Notes under the pieces: model-generated
Told to the model about the DNA's origin: nothing
Database searches by the model: none
Seen by the model: only the letters and a program-made list of their open reading frames with translations
NCBI GenBank assembly: GCA_937995675.1
Contig: CALKJE010000072.1
Coordinates: forward strand, 1-41,138
DNA from: an uncultured Saprospiraceae bacterium
GTDB taxonomy: Bacteria; Bacteroidota; Bacteroidia; Chitinophagales; Saprospiraceae
Length of the DNA stretch: 41,138 nt
Direction: 5' to 3'
Made by a program: the position numbers and the translations under genes
Shown here: piece by piece, positions 8,460 to 41,138 of the stretch
Layout: each line of letters begins with the position of its first letter
Numbering within the stretch: position 1 is the first letter of the stretch

Positions 8460-8537
8460 CTAAAAAAGAGAGGCTACTCGATTGTTCGAGTAGCCTCTTT
8501 TATTTAGAGATATTCAAATGATATCAATGATTATAAT
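8460..8537. repeat. direct repeat copy 2
   Basis: Near-identical to 6132..6213. Its right end reaches the stop codon (8531-8533) of the convergent lectin gene. Confidence 0.9.
8469..8506. terminator. bidirectional rho-independent terminator (inside repeat copy 2)
   Basis: Same 13-bp stem as copy 1, with loop ttgt instead of ttct. Serves the receiver gene (+) and the lectin gene (-). Confidence 0.85.
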
Positions 8538-10678
8538 CTACTGATCACAAACATTTTTGTCATTTGGCGTTTACCATCCAGTTTGATTCTTACGGTGTAA
8601 ACTCCAGGCTGATAATTTGGCATTTCAAATCTCACCACATCTTCCGTCAATGCATCAATAGAACGAGACTGCATTGGCTGTCCTAAACTATTGCTGATCA
8701 TAATCTCCGCAGACAATCCTTCGTAAGCACCTAAGCTTAGATTGATTTGGTCTAATGCAGGATTCGGATAAACAGAGAAGTCTTTGAGGTTCAAATCAAA
8801 TGAAACTTCTTTCACTTCAGAGTAGCGGTAAGTTCCATCCGCAAATATTTGCTTCAGTCTGTAATAGTTAACTCCTTCAGATGCATCTTCATCTTTAGCT
8901 TGATAATTTACATATTCTCGAGAATCACTGATACTCATCACTTCTTCTAGAATCTCAAAATTGATTCCATCTGTAGAAGTTTCCACTTCGAAATAATCGT
9001 TCTTATAATCTGTATTAGTTACCCAATTCATAGATACCTCACGATCATTCTTAACAGCATCGAAGTACAAGTAATCACTTTGCTGCGTAACCGAAGCCGT
9101 TGCACCTGGAGTACCCGCACAACCAAAGATTTTGATTTCGTCCAAATCCCATACTGCTAATCCAGTAGTTCCAGTCTGACGACAGTAACCTAGTAATTCG
9201 AATTGGAAGGTAGTTTGTCCAGTAAATACAAAGTCAGGATCATTTCCTAGATTAAACTGTTCATAACTCCAATTCTCTGTCGTATTTCTTCCCGTTTTTC
9301 GGTAGATCTCTTGACCATTCTTCAATACCCTCATTCCATAATGTGACGGTGGATCGTTATCACCGCTATTTCCACTAATGTGAGAATAGTAGTAAGGAGC
9401 TGCCTCATAAAAACTTAGCTTTGTTAAAGTAGCCGTTCCTCCATTTGTTGGTGCTACGGTAATAGAGAATTTAAAAGCATCATTGCTATTAGCTACAAAA
9501 CTACAAGAATTTCTAATTCCACTACAAATTGCGATACCACTTTGTCCTTCTGTACAAGAATGAACTCCATCATCATGAGATAGAATAGAAGCATTCACAA
9601 CAGAAAAACCTGATGGTGTATTAGTCACGGCTGTAAATTCACTAAAATCATTATTAGAACCATTACTTGAGAATGATTCACAAGCATCAAGATCCCAGTA
9701 AGCAATACGGGTAGGATTACAAACTTGGACTGGCGTACCAGCACAACCACAACCATCTGCAGTTACTACATCATTTTCGGTATCTGGATTACCATCATTA
9801 CAAGCACTTCCTGGTGTCGCTGGGAAACTTGGATTGTTTGGTTGACAGTCGTTGTTGTTACACACTCCGTCTCCATCTGAATCTCCTCCCTGTCCAGCAC
9901 ATGGAGCTGGAGCTGAATTTACCGTAACTGTGAATGAACAAGAAGCATCATTACCGCAATTATCTGTTGCTAAGTAGGTAATAGTAGTTGTTCCGATAGG
10001 AAAAAAAGAACCACTAGATAAGCCTGCTGTTTGATTTAAAGATACAACTCCAGGAGTCGTAGTAATTGGACATCTTTTTTCCATAACTACTTCATAATGG
10101 TCGTGTCCTTGTCGGTCTTTCCACTTTCCATCATTCTTAACCATTACAACATAATCAGAATTATTATAGTTATTTGGTTCGCCATGTGCCCAGTTAGTAT
10201 AAGAAGAATTAGCACCGTTTTGCCATACGAAATTACCTTCACTTGCTGCATCATTGTAACCAATCCAAGCATGCGAAGCAATCAGATTATTTTTAATAAA
10301 TTGATTTTCTCCGCTATTCCCCACAGTTAAAAGATATCCTCCTCGACTAATGGCAAGGTTCTTACCTTCATGCCAAGTGTAATTATTGGTACTTGAGCAC
10401 CAATACTTACTACCATTGTATTGTCCCATATAGGTAAAACCATTTGCACTATTGGAAAGTGCACCACAATTTGTTTGAGTGGTCGTACATTCAGTAGTTG
10501 GATTGGGAGTATTCCAGCTAACGATCGCTCCATTTGCACCAGCCTGTGCTTGAATTGTAATATTACTTGGGCAATTCAAGGAAATCCCAGTAAAATCCGG
10601 ATTAGATCCGGCATTTGCTGTCTGTTGCCAAAGCAAACAACAACACAAAAACGAAAAATAGTAAGTTATTCTTCTCAT
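8531..10678 (-). CDS. T9SS-secreted surface protein with HYR-like, C-type lectin and calcium-binding-like modules
   Basis: Trimmed to MRRITYYFSFLCCCLLWQQTANA (signal peptide). CTLD signature WIGYND...GNFVW...W..GEPNN...GKWKD. HYR-like TTITYLATDNCGNDASCSFTVTV. DSDGDGVCNNNDC. C-terminal FSVYPNPALDQINLSL...YTVRIKLDGK...FVISRL resembles a T9SS sorting domain. Confidence 0.8.
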   Translation of the reverse strand: MRRITYYFSFLCCCLLWQQTANAGSNPDFTGISLNCPSNITIQAQAGANGAIVSWNTPNPTTECTTTQTNCGALSNSANGFTYMGQYNGSKYWCSSTNNYTWHEGKNLAISRGGYLLTVGNSGENQFIKNNLIASHAWIGYNDAASEGNFVWQNGANSSYTNWAHGEPNNYNNSDYVVMVKNDGKWKDRQGHDHYEVVMEKRCPITTTPGVVSLNQTAGLSSGSFFPIGTTTITYLATDNCGNDASCSFTVTVNSAPAPCAGQGGDSDGDGVCNNNDCQPNNPSFPATPGSACNDGNPDTENDVVTADGCGCAGTPVQVCNPTRIAYWDLDACESFSSNGSNNDFSEFTAVTNTPSGFSVVNASILSHDDGVHSCTEGQSGIAICSGIRNSCSFVANSNDAFKFSITVAPTNGGTATLTKLSFYEAAPYYYSHISGNSGDNDPPSHYGMRVLKNGQEIYRKTGRNTTENWSYEQFNLGNDPDFVFTGQTTFQFELLGYCRQTGTTGLAVWDLDEIKIFGCAGTPGATASVTQQSDYLYFDAVKNDREVSMNWVTNTDYKNDYFEVETSTDGINFEILEEVMSISDSREYVNYQAKDEDASEGVNYYRLKQIFADGTYRYSEVKEVSFDLNLKDFSVYPNPALDQINLSLGAYEGLSAEIMISNSLGQPMQSRSIDALTEDVVRFEMPNYQPGVYTVRIKLDGKRQMTKMFVISRL

Positions 10679-11073
10679 GATTAAGTAAATTTTGATAGTT
10701 AAAAAAATAATAAAAAACGTGTATAGCCTTAACTCCAAAATGGAGAATACAGGTTCGATATTTGGAAAATGATAAATAATAACCAAGTCATTGAGCCATG
10801 ATCATCCATGTTCAATGAAGTTATTTTAACAGTTGTTTTTGGAACGGAATAGTAATTATGGCACCAAAGATGGCCGATCAGTTTTAAAAAAAACATTTAG
10901 ATTTGAGATAGAAATCACTCAAATCCAAAATGGACTAAATATTTGTTTGGCAAGAGGTGTTTAAACAATTAGATGAAAGTACCTAAAAAGGTATTTGTAT
11001 GTTTTTAAGACAAGAAAAGCATGAATATGTCACAAAAAAGACAATTATTTTGTTCAAAATTAAGTCTTTTTCT

Positions 11074-24929: not shown

Positions 24930-27900
24930 TTATCGTAAGCTAAGCAATTCTCTCAACTCGTCATTATCGTAATTTCCAATCCATTTCTCTCCATTGGCAA
25001 CGGTTAAGTTAGCCAGCTCTTTTTTTGATTGGAGCAACTCATTTATTTTTTCCTCAAAAGTTTGTTGAGTAATAAAACGATGGACCATGACATTTCGTTT
25101 TTGTCCAATCCGATAAGCACGATCAGTTGCTTGTGCTTCTGCAGCCGGATTCCACCATAAATCATAATGGATCACATTGCTGGCCTGCGTCAGATTCAAT
25201 CCTGTTCCTCCAGCTTTTAAAGAAAGAATCATCACCCGAGTAGAACGGTTATTTTGAAAATCATCTACCATCGCATCTCTCCCTTTTCGGTTGATACCAC
25301 CATGTAAAAACGATGCAGACAAACCAAAATTATCAGCCAATAATTCTTGCAACAAAGTACCCATCTGTTGGTATTGTGTAAAGATCAAAGTCTTTTCTCC
25401 GTTGTCCAAAATCTGTTGTAACAACTGAAATAACAACATCGTCTTACCTGATAGATTCGCCGCTTTATCTCCTTTTTTCAAATATTGATAAGGATGATTA
25501 CAAATTTGTTTAAGTGCGGTAATCAGCATCAACACCAATCCTTTTCTTTCTGCACCTTCTGCGGTTTCTACTCGTTTCAATGTTTTGTCTACTACATTTT
25601 GATAGATCGCGGCTTGCTCAGGAGTTAGCTGACAATACTGATCTTGTTCTATTTTTTCAGGTAAATCTTTAATAATAGATTTATCGGATTTTACCCGACG
25701 CATAATAAACGGTCCCGTAATTTTTTTAAATTTTTCCAACTTCACTAAATCACGATCTGCTTCGATAGGTTTTGCGTATTCGTCTTTAAATTTTTTCAAG
25801 GTTCCGAGATATCCTTTATTGGCAAAATCAAAAACACTCCAGTATTCACTCATTCGATTTTCTACTGGTGTTCCACTCATTGCTATTTTAATTGGAACCT
25901 TAATTTTCTTAATCGCTTTAGTTTGTGCGGTCGCTGGATTCTTAATATTCTGCGCTTCGTCAATCACCATAATCAACCAATGGTATCGTTGCAGTTTGGC
26001 TACTTCTCCACGTGCCACGCCGTAAGTTGTCAAAAGTACATCCGCCTCTTCAATCGGTGCAAGTTTTCGATTAGCACCGTGGTAGATATGCGTGATTAAT
26101 TCTGGCCCAAACTTTTTAATTTCTTTATCCCAATTGGTCAATAAAGTGGTCGGCACCACCACCAATGCTTTTTGCTCATCCAGCCTACCCTCTTCTTTCA
26201 ATTTTAGTAAAGTCGTAATCACTTGCAATGTTTTACCAAGCCCCATATCATCGGCGAGCAAACTACCAAATCCCAGTCTCGTGTTTTTATATAACCATTC
26301 ATAACCTTTTTGTTGATAAGGTCGCAGCGTTGCTTCCAAACTGATCGGTGGCTCTATGGTTTCTGACTTAAGCAACTCATCCATCAGTGCTCGTAACTCT
26401 GGCGTCAATTCTATACCCGCCCCTTTATACTCATCTGCTAAAGCGATTTGTAAAAGTTCGTGTCCGCTTAATTCCGGAGGATTTTCTAATGCTTGAATTA
26501 GCTTAGTAATTTCTGCTTCATCAAAAAAGAGATATTGATTTTGATAGCGAACGATTCCTTTAAAACGCCTGATCATTTTTAAAAACTCCTCTCTCGAAAT
26601 CGTGGTATCTCCTAACGCTACTCGCCAGTCAAAATCTAGGAGTTCATCTAAATTAACCAGTGACTTTTTCTTAACCACTCCTGAATTTTCTGCAGAGACC
26701 TTCATGGATAATTGCGGCTTGAGAATTTTCCGCAAAGCTTTCGGCAAGACTACTTTAATTCCAAACAATCGAATGGTTGGTAATATTTTAAATAGGATAT
26801 CTACAAATTCTATTTCATCAAAAAGTAATGGAACTTTACCTTTTAATTTAACCAAGTCTCCTATTCCTGAAAAATATTCAGAGAGCATGGCGAGATCTCG
26901 CAGTGCATCCATTCGAATATCGGCGTACTGCTTTTTTTCTAATAATGCTTTAAGGCCAAAAACAGGTCTGGTCTTTTTTCGTTTGTCTTCAAAAGCAACT
27001 TCCACAGCAAACCCTTCTTCGGAATCATCTACTTTTATAACTGGAACAAAATCTTTCTCAATGATATAAAATTTATTTAACCATAATTGAATCGCAATTG
27101 GATAGTCCTTGATTTCGTAGTCATTGAACGATTCTGATTTTTGATTAAAAAATAATTGCACCACTTCTATTGGCCAAAGTCGATCTTTGACTTTAGCATT
27201 TTTAGTCACTAAACCTGTTAGAAAAATACTTGTTAAAGCGGTAAAAAAATCAGCAGCAATCGGTTGTTTTATTTTTGTTCTAGCTTTATAGAATAGTATA
27301 TTTTCAGGAACAAGTGCTTCCACCAAATCATGGAGGTTTTTCACAATAGGATTTAATAGTGCAGGAATCCAACGAATGATATACTGTTCTTTTTCATCTA
27401 CCAAAAGCTGTGGAATAATGGCTCCTTTTTTCGCCAATTGCTTGGCATAGACCCAAGCTATCCACAACCCACGTAATCCCGGCGCGTACTGTTGGACACG
27501 AAGAAAAGACAAGGTATCTAACCAATTTATTAAATCCTCTATTTTTCCAAAATTAAATAGGACCTCACCCTTTTTATCGCGAAAGCTAACATCCAAAAAC
27601 GATCCTTTTTCAGAAAGGATAATTTCTAAATCTTCAATCGAATCTTTTTGAATATCGAGCGCAGTTGAAGGTGTTTCAGAGGTCGTACTTTTTTGTAAAT
27701 TCTTCGTTAACTGATCATAATTTGCAGATAATATTTTTTTAAAATTACCTGCCGGAAAGAAAACAGGTTGATCAGAAAGAATGGCCATCAGATCTTCCTT
27801 TAGCGAAGGAATGACAGAAAAATCAATTTGGTCCAAACTTAATCTGGGTTGTTTCCTAGTTCGAGTCTCTTCTGTCAAATCTTCCCAAAGTCGGGACAGT

Positions 27901-28448
27901 GAAAGGATACGAATGTCTTGGTGTTCTTGGGTTGTATAACCTGCTTTTCTAAGCGCTTCGAACAAATCAAATTTGTGTAATTCAAAAACCAGAAACGGAT
28001 TTTGATCGATCTCATTAGCAGTAAGATAGAGCACTGCAGCCATGTGTTTACAAGGAACTGCCCAATCGGGACAAGAGCAACTACCTTCGAGGTCATTCCA
28101 AGAATCAGGAAAAAGTGCGACGCCTTTTCTAGCACAAAGTTCCTTCAGTTCTGGTGGTAGTTGTCTATTAAGTAGTGCCGACAAATGCATTGGATGCTCA
28201 ATGACTGCTTCTACGATTTTTGCTTTTTCTTTATTTGAAAAAGGTGGAATGGTAAAGGAGACTTTATAAGGATGATATTGACTACCTTGAACATTAGCAG
28301 AGATTTCATTGCCTGCAATTTCGATATCACTAGCCAATCCTTTATTTGCATAGGTACGACCACGAGGCAAGCGGTTAGAAAAATCAATTCGGTTTAACGA
28401 ATTCAGCCATTGCTTTCCCCACCAAGTATTTCCGTAAGATTTTCTCAT
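24930..28448 (-). CDS. SNF2-family helicase with an N-terminal SWIM zinc finger
   Basis: 1172 aa. SWIM CSCPDWAVPCKHMAAV. SNF2 motifs LRPYQQKGYEWL, LADDMGLGKTLQ, DEAQNIKN, then helicase-C (LSLKAGGTGLNLT, WWNPAAEAQATDRAYRIGQ). Confidence 0.9.
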   Translation of the reverse strand: MRKSYGNTWWGKQWLNSLNRIDFSNRLPRGRTYANKGLASDIEIAGNEISANVQGSQYHPYKVSFTIPPFSNKEKAKIVEAVIEHPMHLSALLNRQLPPELKELCARKGVALFPDSWNDLEGSCSCPDWAVPCKHMAAVLYLTANEIDQNPFLVFELHKFDLFEALRKAGYTTQEHQDIRILSLSRLWEDLTEETRTRKQPRLSLDQIDFSVIPSLKEDLMAILSDQPVFFPAGNFKKILSANYDQLTKNLQKSTTSETPSTALDIQKDSIEDLEIILSEKGSFLDVSFRDKKGEVLFNFGKIEDLINWLDTLSFLRVQQYAPGLRGLWIAWVYAKQLAKKGAIIPQLLVDEKEQYIIRWIPALLNPIVKNLHDLVEALVPENILFYKARTKIKQPIAADFFTALTSIFLTGLVTKNAKVKDRLWPIEVVQLFFNQKSESFNDYEIKDYPIAIQLWLNKFYIIEKDFVPVIKVDDSEEGFAVEVAFEDKRKKTRPVFGLKALLEKKQYADIRMDALRDLAMLSEYFSGIGDLVKLKGKVPLLFDEIEFVDILFKILPTIRLFGIKVVLPKALRKILKPQLSMKVSAENSGVVKKKSLVNLDELLDFDWRVALGDTTISREEFLKMIRRFKGIVRYQNQYLFFDEAEITKLIQALENPPELSGHELLQIALADEYKGAGIELTPELRALMDELLKSETIEPPISLEATLRPYQQKGYEWLYKNTRLGFGSLLADDMGLGKTLQVITTLLKLKEEGRLDEQKALVVVPTTLLTNWDKEIKKFGPELITHIYHGANRKLAPIEEADVLLTTYGVARGEVAKLQRYHWLIMVIDEAQNIKNPATAQTKAIKKIKVPIKIAMSGTPVENRMSEYWSVFDFANKGYLGTLKKFKDEYAKPIEADRDLVKLEKFKKITGPFIMRRVKSDKSIIKDLPEKIEQDQYCQLTPEQAAIYQNVVDKTLKRVETAEGAERKGLVLMLITALKQICNHPYQYLKKGDKAANLSGKTMLLFQLLQQILDNGEKTLIFTQYQQMGTLLQELLADNFGLSASFLHGGINRKGRDAMVDDFQNNRSTRVMILSLKAGGTGLNLTQASNVIHYDLWWNPAAEAQATDRAYRIGQKRNVMVHRFITQQTFEEKINELLQSKKELANLTVANGEKWIGNYDNDELRELLSLR

Positions 28449-28487: not shown

Positions 28488-29009
28488 TTACCTTTTTTTC
28501 TTCTTTTTCTTATTTCGCTTTTGCCAAAATTTCCAATTGATTTTTTTCTTCTTTTTCTTAATAAGAATAAAACGGAGACTGATTCCAGTTTGATGATAAA
28601 TGCTATTGCGTCCACCAGACAAATTGATGGCTGGTTTATAATCCCAAGACAAAACCGTATTCTTCATCGCGAATTCTAATCCACCAATAAAAGTGACACC
28701 ATAAGGATTATCGAATCCTTCTCTATTATCAATCCAACCGATGTGGGGACCAACTCCTACATAATAATTGAATCGTCTCGAAAGAATTTTTCGATGATTT
28801 TCAAATAAAAGCGTCAAAGCAGATTCATTGGCTTTGGGATGAAAAGTCAAAATACCTTCGATCGTATTCTGGCCCCAAAGCACTTGCTGGACGGATAGTC
28901 CAAAGGGACTTCCGAGTCGTAATCCTGCAGCAGTTCGATAGCGTTGTGCCGACAGTGAAGTAGTCCAAAATAGACCAATCAAGAAAATGAAAATGATATT
29001 TTTATTCAT
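28488..29009 (-). CDS. small outer-membrane beta-barrel-like protein with a polylysine C-terminal tail
   Basis: Signal peptide MNKNIIFIFLIGLFWTTSLSAQ and alternating beta-strand patterns. A barrel-like terminal strand GISLRF is followed by ILIKKKKKKINWKFWQKRNKKKKKKR. Confidence 0.55.
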   Translation of the reverse strand: MNKNIIFIFLIGLFWTTSLSAQRYRTAAGLRLGSPFGLSVQQVLWGQNTIEGILTFHPKANESALTLLFENHRKILSRRFNYYVGVGPHIGWIDNREGFDNPYGVTFIGGLEFAMKNTVLSWDYKPAINLSGGRNSIYHQTGISLRFILIKKKKKKINWKFWQKRNKKKKKKR

Positions 29010-29200: not shown

Positions 29201-30616
29201 ATGAAAAGATTTTTCATTCTGGCAGTGGTATTTTCAACACTCGCCTTCACCATTAGTAGACCAACCGTCTCTAACTTTATTTTCACTACGGTCAATGACG
29301 TTCCGGACTTACCGGATACTCCTTATGACTATTCAGATATTACTTTTCCCGATCATCTGCTCAATGCTCAAGATGACACCATCGACCTTGGATACGAAGG
29401 TGGTGGTATTGATAGTTTATCTTTTGCAGATATTACTGACAACGGTGCTACCTTAGGACGTGTCTTATTTTACGATAAGAAGTTATCGTCTCTTGAGACC
29501 ATGTCTTGTGCCACCTGTCATAATCAAGCGATGTCTTTCGCAGAAAATAAAGCAGTAAGTGATGGACTAACCGCTCCGACATTAAGAAACTCTATGCACC
29601 TTAATGATATTGCCTGGACCAATAAAGAACATTTCTTTTGGGACATGAGTGAATCTGATTTAAGAACCATGATTCGTTTGCCCTTAACCGACGAAAACGA
29701 AATTGGAGCCGATATGGATGATGTTGCAGAAAAACTTGGAGCAACTAGTTATTATCCACAATTGTTTACAGAAGCTTTCGGTGATCCAGTTATTACGGAA
29801 GATCGAATTGCAGAGGCACTCGTACAGTTTATCTCTTCCATGACGACCTTCAATTCTCGATTTGATCAAGAGGCCGCTAATAATTTTGCTGGCTTTACTA
29901 CCCAAGAGCAATTAGGACTTGATCTCTTTTCTACCAACTGTAATAATTGTCACAGTCAAGGCGGACACAGTGTTTTTGGAGACATCTTTCCTGCTGATAT
30001 TCCTATTTTAGAAATCTTTCCTTTTATCTTCAACAATGGATTACCAGAGGATCCAGAAGATTCGGGTGCTGGTAATTGGGAACCTGGATTTAGCAATTTA
30101 TTCAAAATTCCTACTTTACGAAATATTGATCTAACGGCTCCATATATGCACGACGGTCGTTTTGAAACCCTGGAAGAGGTTGTTGACCACTATTCTGATG
30201 AAGTAGAAGAAAACGAATGGACCGCAGGATTTTTCCCTCCTGGAGGTTTTGATTTTACAGACTCGGAAAAAGAAGCGATGGTGGCGTTCTTGAAAACACT
30301 AACCGACGAATCTTTTTTAACCGAACCAAGATGGTCTGATCCTTTCGGACTTGAAACCGATATAGAAAATTTTTCCATTGAGAATCTCATCATTCGTCCT
30401 AATCCAACACGTGACGTCGCCGTTATCGAATATGATAATCCAACTAATGAATTGGTAACTTTCCATGTTTTCTCCGCTGACGGAAAGCTAGTACTGAACG
30501 AAAATACGCGTAGTGATCGTTACACACTTGACAAAGGTATCTTCCACCCTGGAACTTATTTTATTGAGGTGCTGATGGACGACAAAAAGAGTACTGCAAA
30601 GCTGATGGTCCAATAA
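29201..30616 (+). CDS. di-haem cytochrome c peroxidase (CCP/MauG family) with a T9SS-type C-terminal domain
   Basis: Two CxxCH motifs (CATCH at 29507-29521, CNNCH). PYMHDGRF Met-ligand region. C-terminal IIRPNPTRDVAVIEY...GTYFIEVLMDDKKSTAKLMVQ resembles a T9SS sorting domain. Confidence 0.8.
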   Translation: MKRFFILAVVFSTLAFTISRPTVSNFIFTTVNDVPDLPDTPYDYSDITFPDHLLNAQDDTIDLGYEGGGIDSLSFADITDNGATLGRVLFYDKKLSSLETMSCATCHNQAMSFAENKAVSDGLTAPTLRNSMHLNDIAWTNKEHFFWDMSESDLRTMIRLPLTDENEIGADMDDVAEKLGATSYYPQLFTEAFGDPVITEDRIAEALVQFISSMTTFNSRFDQEAANNFAGFTTQEQLGLDLFSTNCNNCHSQGGHSVFGDIFPADIPILEIFPFIFNNGLPEDPEDSGAGNWEPGFSNLFKIPTLRNIDLTAPYMHDGRFETLEEVVDHYSDEVEENEWTAGFFPPGGFDFTDSEKEAMVAFLKTLTDESFLTEPRWSDPFGLETDIENFSIENLIIRPNPTRDVAVIEYDNPTNELVTFHVFSADGKLVLNENTRSDRYTLDKGIFHPGTYFIEVLMDDKKSTAKLMVQ

Positions 30617-32868: not shown

Positions 32869-33600
32869 ATGTCTTTACTAACAAAAATAAGAATCCTATT
32901 TTCCGAAGATCGGCAGTTTCGACAATTTATGTTGCTGTGCTTGTTTACCCTATTTAACTTTTGCCTAGTAGGTGTACGGTTATATTACGTAGACTTTAAC
33001 CTTGCTTCCATTCAATCTTCCGAAGATTTATTTATGCTACGAGGTACGACTACCTTTTTATTTCTAATCTGGAATTTATTTCTAGCCTGGATTCCGTACT
33101 GGTTGTCGCTAGCCGTAGCCCCCTTGTATGAACGTAAGAAGTCACTACTACTTACAGGTGGGTTGCTTTTTGTTTGGTTGCTTTTTTTACCTAACGCACC
33201 TTATATTCTCACCGATCTTTTACATTTGCGAATGCGTGCACCCATCCCTTTTTGGTATGATCTAATGCTGTTAATTTCCTTTGCTTGGACAGGTTTATTA
33301 TTAGGAATAATTTCTCTGTATGAAGTACATCGTTTCATTGCTAAACAGTGGTCTGGATTAGCTGGTTGGATGATTATCATTACCTCAATAGTTCTCAGTG
33401 GGTTAGGTGTGTATATTGGCCGTTTTTTAAGATGGAATTCTTGGGATATTATTACTCAACCATTTGCTCTATTAAAAGATCTTCTTCAAATTTTAATCGA
33501 ACCACAATCATTTTATGGAAGTGGAAGCATCGTGATTTTTGCAGCTTTCTTTTTACTTTCTTATCTCACTTTCTTTAGTTTTTCAAACGATAAATATTAG
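32869..33600 (+). CDS. integral membrane protein, DUF1361-like
   Basis: NLFLAWIPYWLS and FLPNAPYILTDLLHL motifs, with about six TM helices. Confidence 0.55.
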   Translation: MSLLTKIRILFSEDRQFRQFMLLCLFTLFNFCLVGVRLYYVDFNLASIQSSEDLFMLRGTTTFLFLIWNLFLAWIPYWLSLAVAPLYERKKSLLLTGGLLFVWLLFLPNAPYILTDLLHLRMRAPIPFWYDLMLLISFAWTGLLLGIISLYEVHRFIAKQWSGLAGWMIIITSIVLSGLGVYIGRFLRWNSWDIITQPFALLKDLLQILIEPQSFYGSGSIVIFAAFFLLSYLTFFSFSNDKY

Positions 33601-33603
33601 GCT

Positions 33604-34509
33604 ATGAATCTCTCTTTCCCTTCATTTGTCCATCCCAAAAATCGGGGTGGACTTTCTTCAACCGAAGCACCAATTGATATATATTTTAATCAGTTGATTA
33701 TTTACTGGTCTGAGCGTTTATTAGCTCCTAATTTACGTGGACGTCGCCTACATGAGCTGGTGATTTTTGGTATTAAACAAGCACGCGCAGCTAGCTTTGG
33801 TGGTAGTCTCTTAGCTTTAATAATATTGACAAGTTTTTTTGAATTTAGTACAATTGCTCGATATGACTTTTTATTTCTTGGTGCAATCTTTATTCAAGTG
33901 ATGTTATTAATTCTAAAAATAGAAACCTGGAAAGAAACTCAAGTTATCTTAGTTTTTCATATAGTAGCTACCTTGATGGAGTTGTTCAAAACGCACCCAT
34001 CTATTGGAAGTTGGCAATATCCTGAGGCTTGTTTTTTTAAGATTGGAAATGTGCCACTCTTTACTGGTTTTATGTATTCGGCGGTCGGTAGTTTTATTGC
34101 ACGCTCCTGGAAAATAATGAAATTGAGATATACCAATTATCCACCTTTTAAGGTGACTATATTTTTAGCAATTGCGGTTTACGTCAATTTTTTTACGCAT
34201 CATTTTATCTATGATTTCAGATATATATTATTTGGGTTAATCGGTTTGTTTTATTTTAGAACAGAAGTTTATTTTATTGTTTATCAAAAAGAAAGAAAAA
34301 TGCCGATGCTTTTGTCCTTTGTTTTAATTTCCTTTTTTCTATGGTTGGCTGAAAATGCTGGCACCTATGGCAACATGTGGCAGTATCCAGATCAGGTGGA
34401 AGTATGGCAGATGGTATCTTTCGGAAAGATGGGTGCTTGGTTTTTACTGATGATTGTCAGTTTTGTATTGGTTTCGTTAAATCAAAAGCATACACTTTTT
34501 ACTGATTAA
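33604..34509 (+). CDS. integral membrane protein, DUF817-like
   Basis: ELVIFGIKQARAASFGG, FHIVATLMELFKT..SIGSWQYPE and VPLFTGFMYSAVGSF blocks. Multi-pass. Starts 3 nt after the previous gene. Confidence 0.5.
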   Translation: MNLSFPSFVHPKNRGGLSSTEAPIDIYFNQLIIYWSERLLAPNLRGRRLHELVIFGIKQARAASFGGSLLALIILTSFFEFSTIARYDFLFLGAIFIQVMLLILKIETWKETQVILVFHIVATLMELFKTHPSIGSWQYPEACFFKIGNVPLFTGFMYSAVGSFIARSWKIMKLRYTNYPPFKVTIFLAIAVYVNFFTHHFIYDFRYILFGLIGLFYFRTEVYFIVYQKERKMPMLLSFVLISFFLWLAENAGTYGNMWQYPDQVEVWQMVSFGKMGAWFLLMIVSFVLVSLNQKHTLFTD

Positions 34510-34579: not shown

Positions 34580-35827
34580 TTGGAAAACAATCTATTACTC
34601 GACGTTGAAACTTATGCTGTTAACTTCATTACCCGTAATGTTCCAAAAGATTATGCCTTTCACGATCTGCAACATACTATTATTGTTGTAGAGGCTGCCC
34701 ACAAAATTGGGAAGGCGATGAACCTTAATGAAGACGATCTGGAAATACTACAAATCGCCGCTTGGTTTCATGATATGGGCTATGATAAAGGAAAAGAAGG
34801 CCATGAAGAAAGAGGTTGTGAATATGCTGCAAACTTTTTGAAGCCTTTAAATTATCCAGCTGATAAATTAGAAAAGATCCAAAAATGTATCCGCGCGACC
34901 CACCTTAATCATACACCACAAACAGACTTAGAAAGAATCATCTGTGATGCAGACCTCAGTCATCTTGGTCGGAGAAACTATTGGGATCGTTGTCAACGTG
35001 TTAGACAAGAAATTGCTATTACACGAGATACGGTAATGACGGATGAAGAATGGGTAAGTTTCGAACTTGGCTTTATGCAGGCGCACTCTTTCAATACGCA
35101 AATTGCACAAGAATTATACGGTGCACGTAAAAATAAACATATCCAAAAACTTGAGCGTCGACAAAAAAAGTATACCAAACAATCAAATCCTGACACTCCG
35201 AATAATTTGCCAGTCCGCGCTAAAAAAAATAAAAAGAAAAAGAAACCTTCTTATGCAGATCTTGCGAGTAAGAATAATTCTGGCAATATCAACCTAAAAG
35301 AAATCAACCTAGGACGAGGAGTAGAGACGATGTATCGAACTACCTATCGAACGCATATTAACCTTAGTTCTATTGCAGATAATAAAGCGAATATCATGCT
35401 TAGTATCAATGCTATTATTGTCTCTATTACGCTTTCAACCCTTGTCCCTAAATTTGAGGACATTCCAAATTTAGTCATCCCAACGGTGGTCCTACTATTG
35501 GTTTGTTTAGTCGCTATTATCTTTGCCACCCTTTCTACCCGACCCAAAATTACGGAAGGTCGATTTACTCGAAAGAACATCGAAGAACGAAATGCTAATT
35601 TACTTTTCTTTGGTAATTTCTATAATATGAGTCTCGATGATTATCATTGGGGAATGTTGGAAATGATTAAGGATGAGGATTTCTTGTATAGTTCAATGAC
35701 TCGCGATCTTTATTATTTAGGAATCGTATTGGCAAAAAAGTATCGTTACCTAAGTTACTGCTACGCTGTATTTATGTATGGTTTAATTCTGGCGGTCATT
35801 ACTTTCGCGATTGTTTTTATTGCTTAG
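34580..35827 (+). CDS. HD-domain phosphohydrolase fused to a C-terminal two-helix membrane domain (DUF5706/PycTM-like)
   Basis: HD signature FHDLQHT...AAWFHDMGY...CDADLSHLG, then a K-rich linker (KKNKKKKKP). Next come GVETMYRTTYRTHINLSSIADNKANIML and two TM helices. TTG start: it is the first start-type codon after in-frame stops at 34523 and 34526. Confidence 0.7.
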   Translation: MENNLLLDVETYAVNFITRNVPKDYAFHDLQHTIIVVEAAHKIGKAMNLNEDDLEILQIAAWFHDMGYDKGKEGHEERGCEYAANFLKPLNYPADKLEKIQKCIRATHLNHTPQTDLERIICDADLSHLGRRNYWDRCQRVRQEIAITRDTVMTDEEWVSFELGFMQAHSFNTQIAQELYGARKNKHIQKLERRQKKYTKQSNPDTPNNLPVRAKKNKKKKKPSYADLASKNNSGNINLKEINLGRGVETMYRTTYRTHINLSSIADNKANIMLSINAIIVSITLSTLVPKFEDIPNLVIPTVVLLLVCLVAIIFATLSTRPKITEGRFTRKNIEERNANLLFFGNFYNMSLDDYHWGMLEMIKDEDFLYSSMTRDLYYLGIVLAKKYRYLSYCYAVFMYGLILAVITFAIVFIA

Positions 35828-36179: not shown

Positions 36180-37208
36180 TCAGGATTCATTGGCTTCAAT
36201 TCGATGTGCCATTCGCTGGATAGCTTCAATAATTGCTTCTAAGGCAGGTGGATAATCTACATATTGTACCTTATGGCGGTCTTTTCCCCAAATACTCAAG
36301 GTGATTACCTTTTTCTTTTTTCCATAAGCAATCGCCAATCGAAGCGGGATCGGACGAGGTTTTTCTTGTTTTCTTTTTTGGCAGATACTATTGTCACAAT
36401 CATAGATTCGCTCTAGTTCAAAGAATCCTTTTTTGTCTACAAATTCGGCAAAAGCTTCTAGTTCTTCTCTCGGAATATCCTTGCGAGTAACATTCAGCCC
36501 TTTACTAACTGTTTTAAATTCTTTGATTAAACGACCATCACTTTTGATATGAATATAATCTCTTAACACCGGATCAATACCGCCATAATAACCGCCACCG
36601 ATCAATTCGATGTTAATATAGACTCGGTCTTCTTTATATTTTTTTCGTTTCTTTTTCTTCTTCTTTCGTTTTTTTGATTTACGTTTTACAAAGCTAAAAA
36701 GTCCTCCACTCTTTTTCTTTTCATCCATTTCTACAATAACATCAGGCAGTTCATTTGCAGGTTTGATAAAAGGAGCATCTTTGCTTTCTACTTTTACAAA
36801 ATGATATTGATACGTCCCTTTACTATTGGGCTGCGTAAATTCTAGAATAAGTCGGTTCCGACTCAATTCTGCTACCACAAACTTTTTAATGTGTTTAAAA
36901 CTATAGATAAGTTCTCTATCTTCTACCTTAAATCTACCTTTGGTCAAGCGACCATTCAGATATTGCTGATAGGTATAATTGTATCGAAAATAAAGATAAT
37001 ATTCGTAGAAGTTTTCTGCTTTGTGAATAGTTGTATTAGATTCTAGATGGATCGCATAAGTATATTTCCACTTAGATTCTAAAAGCCGACGCTCCTCTAC
37101 TTCTCCAAAACTTCCTCTAGCATTAGCCCTACTATTATCTTGCTGTGCATGTACATCCACAGCAAAGAATCCGATAAATATCAGTAGTAAAGCTAGAAGC
37201 TTTCTCAT
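36180..37208 (-). CDS. hypothetical secreted two-domain protein with a polybasic linker
   Basis: Signal peptide MRKLLALLLIFIGFFAVDVHAQ. Central FVKRKSKKRKKKKKKRKKYK. No family recognised. Confidence 0.6.
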   Translation of the reverse strand: MRKLLALLLIFIGFFAVDVHAQQDNSRANARGSFGEVEERRLLESKWKYTYAIHLESNTTIHKAENFYEYYLYFRYNYTYQQYLNGRLTKGRFKVEDRELIYSFKHIKKFVVAELSRNRLILEFTQPNSKGTYQYHFVKVESKDAPFIKPANELPDVIVEMDEKKKSGGLFSFVKRKSKKRKKKKKKRKKYKEDRVYINIELIGGGYYGGIDPVLRDYIHIKSDGRLIKEFKTVSKGLNVTRKDIPREELEAFAEFVDKKGFFELERIYDCDNSICQKRKQEKPRPIPLRLAIAYGKKKKVITLSIWGKDRHKVQYVDYPPALEAIIEAIQRMAHRIEANES

Positions 37209-37224
37209 TGTTATCTCGTATTTA

Positions 37225-37262
37225 CAAAAAATTTGAGATTCGTTCGGTCGAATCTCAAATTT
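37225..37262 (-). terminator. terminator-like hairpin after the barrel gene, abutting the next start codon
   Basis: The minus strand reads aaatttgagattcg-accgaa-cgaatctcaaattttttg. 12-bp stem plus T-run, ending ~17 nt before the ATG at 37208. Confidence 0.65.
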
Positions 37263-37369
37263 AATATTAACAAAAATTATACCACTGATCTAGTTACGAA
37301 TGAATAGATTAGTTAAGAGTTTGTCCAAATTTGCCAATTGCAGCCAATTAATGGAAGTTTAGACAAGCT

Positions 37370-38884
37370 CTAGAATCGATAGCCAAAAGTAAATAGTATT
37401 CTATTACTTGCTAACTTTCGATTCACCAGTTGTTCTGCACTATTATCTCGTAAATTATAAGGAGAATACTCTGATTCTGTGATTCCTCTAACATACGCTA
37501 GATCCAAATAATATCGATCCGCTCGAAAACCTCCTCCTAAACTAATCCTACTACGAGATCCATCACGGTCAGAATAAGCACTTCCCAACCAATTGTATCC
37601 TGCTCTCACCAAAAAGCGTTGGATCATGTATTCCGCACCTACTCTAATATTCAAAGCAGATTGTAACTCATTATCAATATCTCCATTAGCCACATCTCCT
37701 CGGTCTGTATCAAAAACACTATTTCCATCCTTATCCAAATTATAAGAACTGCCAGCATAATTAACATACTCTACCTCTGCAGATAATAATCCGACCTTAG
37801 GAATAACCAATCCTCCACTACCAATAAAACGCCAAGGTGTTCGAAAACCATAATCAATATCTCTAGGTTCTGCTGGAATTCCTCTTCCTGATATAGTCTG
37901 GTCCAATTCAGTATATGTATAGTCTATACTAGTATCGTAGTAATCTGTTAATCTGTAAAAGGTAGGTGAATGTACCGCCGCACCAATTCTAATCTTTGGA
38001 GTAGGCCAATAAATCATTCCTATCTTTAAATTGATTCCTATCCCATCGGTACTTAAAGTATCCGTAAATTGTAAGCTTTCAAAAAAAGGAATATTCCCAT
38101 CAAACTCCGTCCCTGGATCAAACTCCTCGTATTCTCTAGATTGAGCATATCTTAAGAATGGAATCCCTAATGTTCCACCAATCAAAAACTTATTTCGATA
38201 ATTCCCTGCTAAAGATAGAGACAATTCCTTAATAGATCCTTCCCGTTCTAGACTTTGCAATCGTTGTACTTCAGCACCTGGTTCTGCCTCCTCAAAATCA
38301 TTAAAGTATCTTAAGTTATCATCATCATCTAAGAAATCACCAATTGCAAATGCATCAAATGCAGGTCCTGCCAAAAAATCATCCAACTGTTGCGCTGGTA
38401 TTCCTAATCCATCTGGTCCAGTAGCCAGTTCTAAAAACTGATCTGCCATCGAACCAGAAGATCGTCCTTCAAAATCAAAATTCTCTTTAAAATCTGCTAT
38501 CCGATTATAACCAATCGCAAAATTCGACGTTCTCCATTTTCCTCTAGGTCTTGAATTTAAGACGATCCCTACATTACTAAAATTAAAGGTCGACGCATTC
38601 TCACTTTGTGAATCATTCCTTCCACCCAAGGTTCCAGTAGATCTTCGTAAATCAAAAGAAGGGGTAATACTAAATTCAGAACTTCGGTAAATAGCCAATC
38701 CCGCAGGATTTACATTCACCACCGAAAATTCACCTCCTAAAGCACTCATTCCACCACCGATACCAGCCATTCGGGCAGTACTAGCAGATTCGGTCTGGCT
38801 AAAACGTAAAGCATCACTAATTGATTGAGCAGAAAGAAAAGTGGTGATGCTAAAGGTCAATAAAATTAAAATGATATTTTTCAT
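37370..38884 (-). CDS. outer-membrane beta-barrel protein, FadL/PorV-like
   Basis: Trimmed to MKNIILILLTFSITTFLSAQ. N-terminal ARMAGIGGGMSALGGEFSVVNVNPAGLAIY resembles the FadL-family hatch motif. Alternating strands throughout, and C-terminal FTFGYRF is a beta-signal. Confidence 0.6.
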   Translation of the reverse strand: MKNIILILLTFSITTFLSAQSISDALRFSQTESASTARMAGIGGGMSALGGEFSVVNVNPAGLAIYRSSEFSITPSFDLRRSTGTLGGRNDSQSENASTFNFSNVGIVLNSRPRGKWRTSNFAIGYNRIADFKENFDFEGRSSGSMADQFLELATGPDGLGIPAQQLDDFLAGPAFDAFAIGDFLDDDDNLRYFNDFEEAEPGAEVQRLQSLEREGSIKELSLSLAGNYRNKFLIGGTLGIPFLRYAQSREYEEFDPGTEFDGNIPFFESLQFTDTLSTDGIGINLKIGMIYWPTPKIRIGAAVHSPTFYRLTDYYDTSIDYTYTELDQTISGRGIPAEPRDIDYGFRTPWRFIGSGGLVIPKVGLLSAEVEYVNYAGSSYNLDKDGNSVFDTDRGDVANGDIDNELQSALNIRVGAEYMIQRFLVRAGYNWLGSAYSDRDGSRSRISLGGGFRADRYYLDLAYVRGITESEYSPYNLRDNSAEQLVNRKLASNRILFTFGYRF

Positions 38885-38943
38885 AAAAGGGGTTGTTTTA
38901 TAGCTTTCTAAATAATAATTGTTCAAAGACTCCTCGCAGTACA

Positions 38944-38978
38944 TAAAAAAAGTGGGTGAAAATAAATCCACCCACTCT
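38944..38978 (-). terminator. rho-independent terminator after the low-complexity gene
   Basis: The minus strand reads agtgggtg-gatttatttt-cacccact followed by T7. Confidence 0.7.
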
Positions 38979-39004
38979 TTTCGCTTATGCGAATTTAGCA
39001 AAGA

Positions 39005-40057
39005 TTAATTACCTCTGCGGCTTGAACTTCTTCGGCTGCTACCAGAAGAAGATCTGCTGCTTCGAGAAGGAGAAGCACTGCTTCGAGAGCTACTTCGAGA
39101 AGAACTAGATCTTGCACTACTTCGTCGCTGTGTGCGTGGTGCAGTTCTAGTACTACTTCGACTTGAGTTACTACGGCTGTTAAAGATGCTAGAACGCTTC
39201 TTTGTAGCACGACTGTTAGAACGAGTAGCAGGAGAAGAACTTCTAGTACTGCTTCGTCGAGTAGCGCGGCTGTTACCTCTAGAAGTATTACCTCTATCGT
39301 TTCCAACACTATTTCTTCTAGACTTACTTGTCACACGCTTATTACGAGTTACGCCGTCATTTGTACGACCACCTACGTTGCTGTTGTTACCAGGTCCGTA
39401 GTTACCTCGTGCATTGCTATTATTGTTTGTTGCTCTGCTCGTGAAAGTAGAACCGCTTCCGCTCCAAGAAGGAGGACAGTAGGCATTTCCGCCTCCATAA
39501 CTATTGGCAAATCCGCCACCACCGAAACCGTTTCCAAAGTTATTCCCATAACGATTATATGGATTGTTGAATCCATTATTAAATCGGTTATATGGGTTAT
39601 ATGGATTGAATCGGTTACGGAAAGGACTAAATCCTCTGTATCGGTTACGATTTCCAATAATAATCGTCACTCCATTGTTTCCAAAGGCGTTATAAGGATT
39701 ATAGAATCCATTATTAAAATTAGAAGCATAAATCGCACGACCAGGTACGCCATAACGATCATAGTAGTAACTATCTACGTAAGCTGGCGAGTAAAAGCCA
39801 AATCCAGCGTATGGACGTTGGAATCGACGAATTCGCGAAGTATAATAATAATCGTAATCATCATCATCGTAGCTTGCTGAATCAAAGTCATCATCTTCTG
39901 AATCCTGTTCATCATAATCATCGTAAGAAGTTTCGTAGACATCCTCTGTATCAGTGGAAGGATCAAAATAAACGTCGTCGTACTGCGCAATCGCGGTAGC
40001 TCCGAATCCAAAAAGGAAAAGGGCGACTAAAAAGGTTGATAATCTATACATTTTCAT
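39005..40057 (-). CDS. secreted tri-block low-complexity protein (acidic D/Y, then N/G/F/Y/P, then Ser/Arg-rich)
   Basis: 350 aa. Signal peptide MKMYRLSTFLVALFLFGFGATAIA. Residues 25-74 have 18 D, 4 E, 10 Y and no K/R. Residues 75-207 are N/G/F/Y-rich with a duplicated FNNGFxNPYN..GNN unit. Residues 255-350 have 24 R, 2 K and no D/E. It has its own terminator. Confidence 0.7.
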   Translation of the reverse strand: MKMYRLSTFLVALFLFGFGATAIAQYDDVYFDPSTDTEDVYETSYDDYDEQDSEDDDFDSASYDDDDYDYYYTSRIRRFQRPYAGFGFYSPAYVDSYYYDRYGVPGRAIYASNFNNGFYNPYNAFGNNGVTIIIGNRNRYRGFSPFRNRFNPYNPYNRFNNGFNNPYNRYGNNFGNGFGGGGFANSYGGGNAYCPPSWSGSGSTFTSRATNNNSNARGNYGPGNNSNVGGRTNDGVTRNKRVTSKSRRNSVGNDRGNTSRGNSRATRRSSTRSSSPATRSNSRATKKRSSIFNSRSNSSRSSTRTAPRTQRRSSARSSSSRSSSRSSASPSRSSRSSSGSSRRSSSRRGN

Positions 40058-40275
40058 AAAAAATAAGTTTTAATGTAATTATGTGACTCTCTTACAAGTT
40101 ACAAGTACAATTTATTACTTTTGTGGCTATTTTTTAGTTAAAAAACCATTAAAGTTGAATTTTTATTTTCAAAAGTCGGTTTAGTAACAAATAAACAACC
40201 TTAAAAACACTATTAAGACGCTATAAGTTTAATTTGCGTCACTATATAAAATTTAATAATTCGTTAAAATTGTAA

Positions 40276-41138
<863 letters not shown>

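Follow-up and report, generated by a model that had tools for sequence, protein, structure and literature searches.

A low-complexity exported protein and a FadL-superfamily barrel form an ancient two-gene unit in Bacteroidota

Introduction

A Bacteroidota FadL-fold barrel with a cognate partner is a known kind of system. FadL-fold barrels of the β-barrel assembly machinery (BAM) complex of this phylum hold a protein partner, as described for BamG with BamH (two papers from 2025, one of them PMC12578637), and a paralogous pair, BamG2-BamH2, has been described as a putative operon (PMC12578637). PorV has been proposed to bind substrates and to shuttle them (PMC12578637). Here we analyzed a stretch of 41,138 nucleotides (nt) from an uncultured Saprospiraceae bacterium (contig CALKJE010000072.1 of assembly GCA_937995675.1; hereafter, the window), in which three adjacent genes encode a low-complexity (LC) protein, an outer-membrane (OM) barrel and an exported two-domain protein of 342 amino acids (aa). 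We found that the LC and barrel genes are an ancient two-gene unit, kept beside the prolyl-tRNA synthetase gene proS in at least four Bacteroidota lineages. In a partial literature search the barrel clade, its disordered partner family and their position beside proS appeared to be undescribed, save for one remark on Flavobacterium johnsoniae.

Results

Co-conservation of the LC and barrel genes

A contig search with the single barrel of the window returned at least 7 close relatives, all of them fully syntenic and therefore uninformative for co-conservation. We scanned metagenomes with an alignment of 10 barrel sequences, which recovered 80 loci at 30-42% barrel identity, and added look-ups in isolate genomes and metagenome-assembled genomes (MAGs). 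Under a strict filter that required an LC-type open reading frame (ORF) directly upstream of the barrel gene on the same strand, 69 of 78 loci carried an LC gene; with two loci added by eye (L056 and L092) and two dropped for upstream sequence that was too short (L070 and L074), the adjusted count was ~71 of 76. Look-ups seeded with LC proteins also arrived beside the barrel. The gene proS lay divergently upstream of the pair in 47 of the 54 loci that extended 3 kb or more on the upstream side, and the pair was kept without proS in three (L041, L052 and L100). Among named sources, the order proS/LC/barrel was found in Pontibacter russatus, a Tenuifilaceae MAG, Chitinophagaceae bacterium MMS25-I14, GCA_038918115 and a Niabella-like locus. 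The taxonomic labels obtained for metagenome loci through their prolyl-tRNA synthetase clusters were Niabella, 'Bacteroidales' and 'Bacteroidia'. The taxonomic breadth thus sampled comprises Saprospiraceae, Pontibacter, Chitinophagaceae and Tenuifilaceae together with metagenome contigs, and Flavobacteriia from annotation only. If the coupling of the two genes is real, their presence in no fewer than four named lineages, next to a housekeeping gene, points to a basic function in the envelope.

An earlier note on this DNA, made from the letters alone, had treated the three genes as one unit and had named conservation of the gene neighborhood as one way to check it. The LC and barrel genes are indeed co-conserved well past close relatives; the inclusion of the 342-aa gene in the unit was not supported, that gene having been detected in one lineage only (19 of ~100 loci, described below).

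Five loci carried the barrel without an LC gene (L030, L058, L059, L064 and L077), and all five also lacked proS. By identity clustering, they fell into one Chitinophagaceae-like cluster, at 41-59% identity to the nearest barrels there, which included LC-paired ones; these five barrels are probably lineage-specific paralogues. Their N-terminal motif reads EAYNLSN in place of DALRYS.

Gene layout and signal peptides

The three genes follow one another on the minus strand, at 39005..40057 (LC gene, 350 aa), 37370..38884 (barrel gene, 504 aa) and 36180..37208 (342-aa gene), and each encodes a signal peptide, as the earlier note had reported. Its further readings of these proteins also held: the three-block composition of the LC protein, the hatch-like N-terminus of the barrel and its end in FTFGYRF, the polybasic linker of the 342-aa protein (kept in 34 homologues) and the strong hairpins after the first two genes were all found. 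Divergent from the LC gene on the plus strand, the 5' part of proS (40288..41138; 283 codons with no stop) runs out of the window; its translation is 73-98% identical to Pfam-annotated prolyl-tRNA synthetase ORFs of related loci.

The barrel starts at the ATG at 38884, and its homologues likewise begin at ATG. A 543-aa version from an upstream TTG was rejected, since its reading frame crosses the terminator hairpin and its start is not shared by homologues. Alternative-frame ORFs within the LC gene (38995-39309, 39132-39401 and 39373-39657; 89-104 aa) were likewise set aside as by-products of biased composition, conservation being seen only in the LC frame.

In all three proteins the signal peptide is followed by Gln at +1 (TAIA|QYDD in the LC protein, LSA|QSIS in the barrel and VHA|QQDN in the 342-aa protein), and in the homologue alignments this residue never varies in the barrel (Q20) or in the 342-aa protein (Q22). 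Gln at this position fits the 'Q-rule' that is said to hold for signal peptidase I substrates of Bacteroidota and that is attributed to Bochtler and colleagues (2018). [quoted passage not shown] The same library found Por_Secre_tail domains in the window ORFs at 29201-30616 (plus strand) and 8531-10786 (minus strand), which serve as positive controls, and so agrees with the earlier note, which had stated that all three proteins lack this domain and that two other cargos in the window use the T9SS. A PADLOC scan of the three proteins and an Rfam scan of the whole window gave no match.

The LC proteins form a family

The LC protein is charged at its two ends in opposite senses. Behind the signal peptide (residues 1-24, cleavage at TAIA|Q; 39986..40057), block 1 (39839..39985) begins with the mature N-terminus QYDDVYFDP and continues as an acidic Asp/Tyr-rich stretch, such that residues 25-73 carry a net charge of -22 over 49 residues (D 37%, Y 20%). 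Block 2 (39443..39838; residues 74-205) has N 17%, G 17%, Y 13% and F 11% and comprises the core beginning YYYTSRIRRFQRPYAGFGFYSPAYVD, low-complexity sequence rich in Asn, Gly, Tyr and Phe, and a single Cys in AYCPPSW. Block 3 (39005..39442, stop codon included; minus strand, like the rest) is a Ser/Arg-rich polycationic tail ending in RRGN, with S 32%, R 21% and a net charge of +33 over 145 residues (residues 206-350). Substantial tandem repeats were absent from the DNA of the LC gene, and in the region Tandem Repeats Finder reported only short, low-scoring arrays of 2-3 copies; the low complexity is therefore compositional and not repeat-based. In the translation we noticed no imperfect protein repeats.

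Comparison of the upstream ORFs from ~70 loci revealed a common plan: a signal peptide, the motif DD[VIL]Y(Y/F).P, a variable acidic stretch, a core, an aromatic stretch and a tail. A DD[VIL]Y-type motif stands near the start of 66 of 67 LC orthologues. About half of the orthologues are lipoproteins (signal peptidase II, SPII) and about half are signal peptidase I (SPI) substrates. In the SPI types the signal peptide always ends in A-Q just ahead of the motif, which begins 0-9 residues past the A|Q cleavage site; in the SPII types it follows the lipid Cys at a median distance of 12 residues (range 9-21). The core spans ~50 residues with the consensus dDyYDY.YsSRIRRFhrPy.gfgYYdpyYtdsyyYDPf..pG.siY.G, and a profile built on 50 orthologues matches 57 loci. 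Downstream of it lies a Tyr/Trp/Gly/Asn-rich stretch, often closed by YYGPR, and then a long, net-positive tail of Ser/Thr/Asn/Arg/Lys/Pro with a basic C-terminus (RRGN, GGGRR or RKF) family-wide. With residues 23-205 of the LC protein, an exhaustive phmmer search reached 143 clusters at 50% identity that share this architecture, and in most of them the alignment sets in near residue 23 of the target. When the N-terminal half was used in a word-indexed protein search, 6 proteins only were returned. On this sequence evidence, the LC protein is a member of a protein family for which no model has been built, and more than compositional noise. No Pfam or NCBIfam model matched any of 8 diverse LC proteins, the members are annotated by NCBI as hypothetical proteins, and the absence of a model for the family is of consequence for annotation.

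Several further features of the family were observed. SPI-type LC proteins nearly always contain exactly one Cys, which in the window lies at residues ~190-196 (AYCPPSW; ~39470-39490). In the Saprospiraceae-like clade (L001-L026 and L093-L095), the lone Cys sits in a conserved YCPP[STG][WY], and the barrels of this clade are usually free of Cys; a single Cys in an exported, disordered protein suggests an intermolecular disulfide. The tails of eight lipoprotein-type LC proteins (L031, L035, L036, L039, L068, L072, L078 and L085) share a linear motif of the form ~Y.SP.Y..P[KR]SS.EY..P[RK] amid otherwise unalignable Ser/Thr/Asn/Arg sequence; this motif, which may be a binding motif, was not seen in the LC protein of the window. 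At one locus (L008, 7035-7826), the gene caller had placed two wrong-frame ORFs where the LC gene lies, and the family may therefore be under-counted in protein databases. The LC sequence of the window was missing from a collection of 15 billion proteins in which both of its neighbors are present.

A distinct clade of FadL-superfamily barrels

An AlphaFold2 (AF2) model of the barrel, built from an alignment of 25 sequences, reached a predicted local distance difference test score (pLDDT) of 87 and a predicted TM-score (pTM) of 0.83. After the signal peptide (38828-38884), ~50 non-beta, hatch-like N-terminal mature residues containing NPAG (38678-38827) precede a large barrel (37373-38677) that ends in FTFGYRF, all on the minus strand. 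DSSP assigned 15-16 beta segments, where FadL has 14 strands, and a break at 131/134 in the segment list could correspond to the kink of FadL strand S3 that forms a lateral opening. All significant Foldseek matches were of the FadL type: BamG of Bacteroides thetaiotaomicron, Porphyromonas gingivalis and F. johnsoniae gave matches of much the same quality as did FadL, TodX and TbuX (E 1e-15 to 1e-10, TM 0.57-0.67, identity 10-14%). Among 25 diverse homologues, the first two residues of the hatch motif N59-P60-A61 do not vary, and the conservation of A61 is 90% or more.

At the sequence level, the barrel scored 25.2 bits against Pfam PF03349 (Toluene_X), below the gathering cut-off of 29.7 and matching residues 262-467 only, and many members of the barrel family carry weak precomputed matches to this model. 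Scores against the NCBIfam PorV/PorQ models NF033709, NF033710 and NF033711 were 43.1, 25.5 and 20.1 bits, below the respective cut-offs of 90, 250 and 220, and the NCBIfam BamG model (NF053685) gave 24.8 bits against an equivalog cut-off of 250, over the N-terminal 80 residues only. None of the 25 diverse homologues reached a curated PorV, PorQ or BamG cut-off; weak matches to the BamG model occurred in 7 of them. A sequence search of the Protein Data Bank (PDB) returned weak FadL-family matches only, and NCBI names members of the family generically 'OmpP1/FadL family transporter'. Since it lies below every curated cut-off, we regard the barrel as its own clade, a separate clade of the FadL superfamily with a constant gene context. 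This bears out the earlier description of a FadL/PorV-like hatch: the predicted fold is of the FadL type with an N-terminal hatch, and the closest sequence-family score is that of PorV_fam. It also bears on an outcome that the earlier note had regarded as unfavorable, a barrel grouping with ordinary FadL transporters in unrelated contexts, which did not occur.

Two assignments of the barrel were considered and rejected. The barrel is not the BamG of this organism: its score is far below the cut-off, it is ~100 residues longer, and it has no Bam context, no bamA- or bamH-like gene having been seen in the listed barrel neighborhoods. Nor did we take the invariant NPA as proof of a transporter role. 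The N-terminus of F. johnsoniae PorV aligns with the barrel, including ARxxGLG and NPA, in a weak alignment (E 0.33); since the PorV hatch has NPA too, this motif cannot separate channels from proteins that dock a partner.

The 342-aa protein is a lineage-specific third member

The 342-aa protein consists of a signal peptide (37146-37208), a beta-rich N-domain (36729-37145), a K/R linker (36621-36728) and an alpha/beta C-domain with a CxxxxC pair (36183-36620), all on the minus strand. It has 540 homologues, those listed being at least 56% identical, and none of the 540 carries a Pfam match or an informative name. The K/R linker KRKSKKRKKKKKKRKKYK and the CxxxxC pair are conserved in an alignment of 34 homologues. 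Its AF2 model (pLDDT 64) combines a beta-rich N-domain of ~8 strands (domain pLDDT ~75-80), a disordered linker and an alpha/beta C-domain. Foldseek gave suggestive matches of the C-domain to a Mago-nashi-like fold (E 3.5e-5) and of the N-domain to lipocalins (E 5e-3 to 1e-1, TM ~0.45). A PDB sequence search with the protein found nothing significant, with matches to fatty-acid-binding proteins at E ~0.5.

A profile of the 342-aa family matched 19 of ~100 fetched loci, a count that includes duplicates. Every match belonged to the Saprospiraceae-like barrel cluster and lay directly 3' of the barrel gene. Look-ups seeded with the 342-aa protein showed the order proS/LC/barrel/342-aa in 4 of 4 cases, with differing outer flanks; where the 342-aa gene was not found, the downstream neighbor of the barrel varies. 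The 342-aa protein is a third member added in Saprospiraceae-like lineages, outside the ancestral unit.

Intergenic hairpins and a conserved upstream block

Between the LC and barrel genes of the window lies a terminator-like hairpin (38945..38980, minus strand) with a 14-bp stem and a U-run (folding energy dG -24.4, z -5.8), and a second one, also with a 14-bp stem and a U-run, separates the barrel and 342-aa genes (37224..37262, minus strand; dG -19.4, z -3.9). Across the scanned loci, the gap between the LC and barrel genes was shorter than 80 nt (20-80 nt) in 32 of 78, which suggests an operon, and only one of these 32 contained a hairpin. The gap measured at least 80 nt in the other 46, and 31 of these had a hairpin with a T-run. 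The hairpin layout fits attenuation that leaves the LC protein in excess, and it fits separate transcription units equally well.

The LC start codon is preceded by a non-coding block, a putative promoter or leader (40058..40185, minus strand), that is conserved in an alignment of 10 Saprospiraceae-like loci whose barrels are only ~38-41% identical. Its core (40109-40123) consists of the invariant CAAAAGTAATAA(A/T)TT, flanked by TTTAA..TTAAC and ACTTGTAAGAGAGTCAC..TAATTAC, and this 15-mer is unique in the window. RNAalifold found no consensus RNA fold in the block, and Rfam gave no match. The block is probably a promoter or operator.

Localization and a probable counterpart in F. johnsoniae

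Bacteroidota lipoproteins destined for the cell surface follow an export rule that calls for 2 or more acidic residues among the first six or so past the lipid Cys (PMC12578637). This signal was found in 0 of the 32 lipoprotein-type LC proteins scored, and surface export is therefore disfavored.

In F. johnsoniae, Fjoh_4939 is a proline-tRNA ligase, Fjoh_4940 an SPII 'periplasm-facing lipoprotein' of unknown function and Fjoh_4941 an SPI barrel of the FadL family (PMC12045153). The gene order is identical to that of the window, so Fjoh_4939-4941 are probably orthologues in Flavobacteriia, by gene order and annotation only; F. johnsoniae would then be a lipoprotein-type (SPII) lineage, in contrast to the SPI type of the window. 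Upon depletion of TamL, Fjoh_4941 rose 5.6-fold and Fjoh_4940 2.6-fold, and both were detected in membranes (PMC12045153). Spectral counts were ~46 for Fjoh_4940 and 19 for Fjoh_4941, and the authors remarked that the proximity of the two genes 'might indicate a functional link' (PMC12045153). The probable counterpart thus responds to a defect in OM lipid homeostasis, in a genetically tractable organism.

Discussion

A proposed periplasm-facing partner for a FadL-type barrel

Building on the gene order and its conservation, the features of the LC family, the fold of the barrel and the missing export signal, we tentatively propose, at somewhat short of an even chance, that the locus encodes a FadL-type barrel with a dedicated, largely disordered partner that faces the periplasm, an ancient OM module of Bacteroidota. 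The LC protein would be exported by Sec and remain at the outer membrane, on its periplasmic side. An N-terminal lipid anchor without a surface-export signal would hold it there in about half of the lineages; in the SPI lineages, including the window, we infer that it is likewise periplasmic and is held by docking of the DD[VIL]Y segment and the SRIRRF/YYDP core onto the barrel. The aromatic/Gly/Asn segment and the polycationic tail would reach into the periplasm, where they could link the barrel to cargo or to anionic material of the envelope, such as peptidoglycan or the head groups of phospholipids. The barrel, retaining a FadL hatch with NPA, may still pass hydrophobic molecules. In Saprospiraceae, the 342-aa protein might add a calycin-like ligand pocket on a membrane-seeking polybasic linker.

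Several considerations weigh against this proposal. The adjacency of proS is nearly as constant as that of the barrel and its function is surely unrelated, so adjacency alone overstates coupling. The strong hairpin between the LC and barrel genes, seen in the window and in 31 of the 46 loci with wide gaps, makes co-transcription uncertain and suggests that the stoichiometry may be far from 1:1. The export rule was derived in Bacteroides, Capnocytophaga and Flavobacterium, and the DD motif of the LC sequences does lie 9-13 residues past the Cys. The membership of Fjoh_4940 in the LC family is probable, by gene order and annotation only, and the likeness of the modeled N-domain of the 342-aa protein to calycins is weak (pLDDT 64, Foldseek E ~5e-3).

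Alternative explanations

Much the same observations would arise if the two genes were not specifically coupled, with the barrel serving as an ordinary FadL-type channel, for lipids or hydrophobic compounds, and lying beside an independent LC envelope protein through inherited synteny. The invariant NPA of the hatch, the presence of FadL, TodX and TbuX among the top fold matches, the nearly equal conservation of the proS adjacency (that is, a neighborhood that is simply stable), the terminator-like hairpins between the genes in many lineages and the response of the F. johnsoniae FadL homologue to TamL depletion, a lipid-homeostasis defect, all fit such a history. We nevertheless consider it unlikely. 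The pair persists after loss of proS, and in 32 loci its two genes share a strand and are 20-80 nt apart; the LC-less barrels are confined to one Chitinophagaceae-like cluster and look like paralogues; PorV, a FadL homologue proposed to bind substrates and not a known small-molecule channel, has NPA too (weak alignment, E 0.33), so that the motif is no proof of a transporter role; and both F. johnsoniae proteins rise together.

A different possibility, also doubtful in our estimation, is that the LC protein, which has a FUS-like composition (acidic Asp/Tyr head, aromatic/Gly/Asn 'sticker', Arg/Ser or Arg/Gly tail), self-associates into a gel or condensate layer nucleated at its own barrel, joined by the calycin-like accessory in Saprospiraceae. 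If true, such a layer would be a previously unrecognized structural or tethering element of the Bacteroidota envelope and could, for example, replace an OM-peptidoglycan link of the Lpp type, which to our knowledge is not known to be present in Bacteroidota.

The earlier note saw in the locus the organizational logic of curli and Fap, and this likeness stands as far as an LC gene beside a dedicated barrel is concerned. Taken literally, the barrel would be an export or assembly pore for an aggregation-prone LC protein that forms an extracellular matrix or fiber, as in CsgG-CsgA and FapF-FapC, with the 342-aa protein as accessory. The prion-like Asn/Gly/Tyr/Phe composition of the middle block, the constant adjacency of the cognate barrel and the lack of a T9SS C-terminal domain in all three proteins are in keeping with this, and a hairpin after the LC gene is expected if the LC protein is made in excess, as are the F. 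johnsoniae counts (~46 vs 19). An export pore is disfavored, however, by a FadL fold whose lumen holds a conserved hatch and which shows no similarity to CsgG or FapF, by the absence of substantial tandem repeats in the DNA and of Pfam curlin or Fap matches (none at E up to 1, in line with the lack of sequence resemblance already stated in the earlier note), by the strongly charged flanks of the LC protein, by the lipoprotein nature of about half of its orthologues, which lack a surface-export signal, and by the classification of Fjoh_4940 as periplasm-facing. We regard curli- or Fap-like export as quite improbable.

Equally hard to credit is surface docking of the BamG-BamH or PorV-substrate type, in which the LC protein would be anchored at the cell surface through its N-terminal part, by the barrel, and its disordered polyampholyte chain would make up a surface coat: the barrel fold is as close to BamG as to FadL, its sequence is weakly closest to the PorV/PorQ family, FadL-like barrels that hold partners are a precedent and a conserved motif stands at the mature N-terminus of the LC protein, yet the export signal is missing in 32 of 32 lipoprotein-type LC proteins, SPI-type LC proteins have no known route across the outer membrane, and a periplasm-facing location is predicted for the F. 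johnsoniae counterpart.

Other genes of the window

Convergent with the 342-aa gene, the window encodes a 415-aa protein (34580-35827, plus strand) that has an HD domain at the N-terminus and a PycTM (Pycsar effector-type transmembrane) domain at the C-terminus, 87-94% identical in close relatives and with no cyclase gene seen alongside. It adjoins genes for DUF1361 and DUF817 membrane proteins (32869-34509, plus strand), which are 83-97% identical in all close relatives. A copy of the HD-PycTM gene, 38% identical, occurs ~6 kb from the module in L011, and a DUF1361 gene lies near that copy too. On the minus strand, positions 24930-28448 encode a 1172-aa SNF2 helicase with SWIM and DUF3670 domains, which PADLOC matched to ZorD (441 bits) and DpdE (384 bits); a small ORF beside it (28488-29009) gave no match. 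The two T9SS cargos are a C-type lectin/HYR protein (8531-10786, minus strand) and a di-heme cytochrome c peroxidase (CCP_MauG; 29201-30616, plus strand).

Comparison with known systems

With curli (CsgA/CsgG) and Fap (FapC/FapF), the locus shares organizational logic only, namely a low-complexity exported protein beside a dedicated OM barrel. No similarity to these systems was seen in sequence or fold, the LC protein lacks substantial repeats, and many LC orthologues are predicted to be periplasm-facing lipoproteins. CsgG forms an oligomer of lipoproteins, and FapF is a trimer with a plug; the barrel has an SPI signal and a FadL fold.

The FadL, TodX and TbuX channels (PF03349) have the same fold, N-terminal hatch and NPA as the barrel, which nonetheless scores below the Pfam gathering threshold (25.2 vs 29.7). 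We know of no obligate upstream disordered partner of classical FadL genes. PorV and PorQ of the T9SS come closest by sequence family, PorV_fam giving the best score of the barrel at 43 bits, still under the cut-off of 90; the fold match to PorV is far weaker than those to BamG and FadL (E 5e-5), and the LC partner of the barrel is without a T9SS C-terminal domain.

BamG-BamH (PDB 9hiv, 9hjm and 9n2d) offers the nearest parallel in kind, BamG being another FadL-fold Bacteroidota barrel with a dedicated partner and the top Foldseek match (E 7e-15). The barrel of the window is 11-14% identical to BamG and ~100 residues longer, and BamH is a folded surface lipoprotein with an export signal, whereas the LC protein is mostly disordered and has no such signal. 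If the coupling is real, the locus would add a further FadL-fold barrel of Bacteroidota with a dedicated partner to BamG-BamH and to the substrate binding proposed for PorV, and it would be the first such case in which the partner is an intrinsically disordered polyampholyte.

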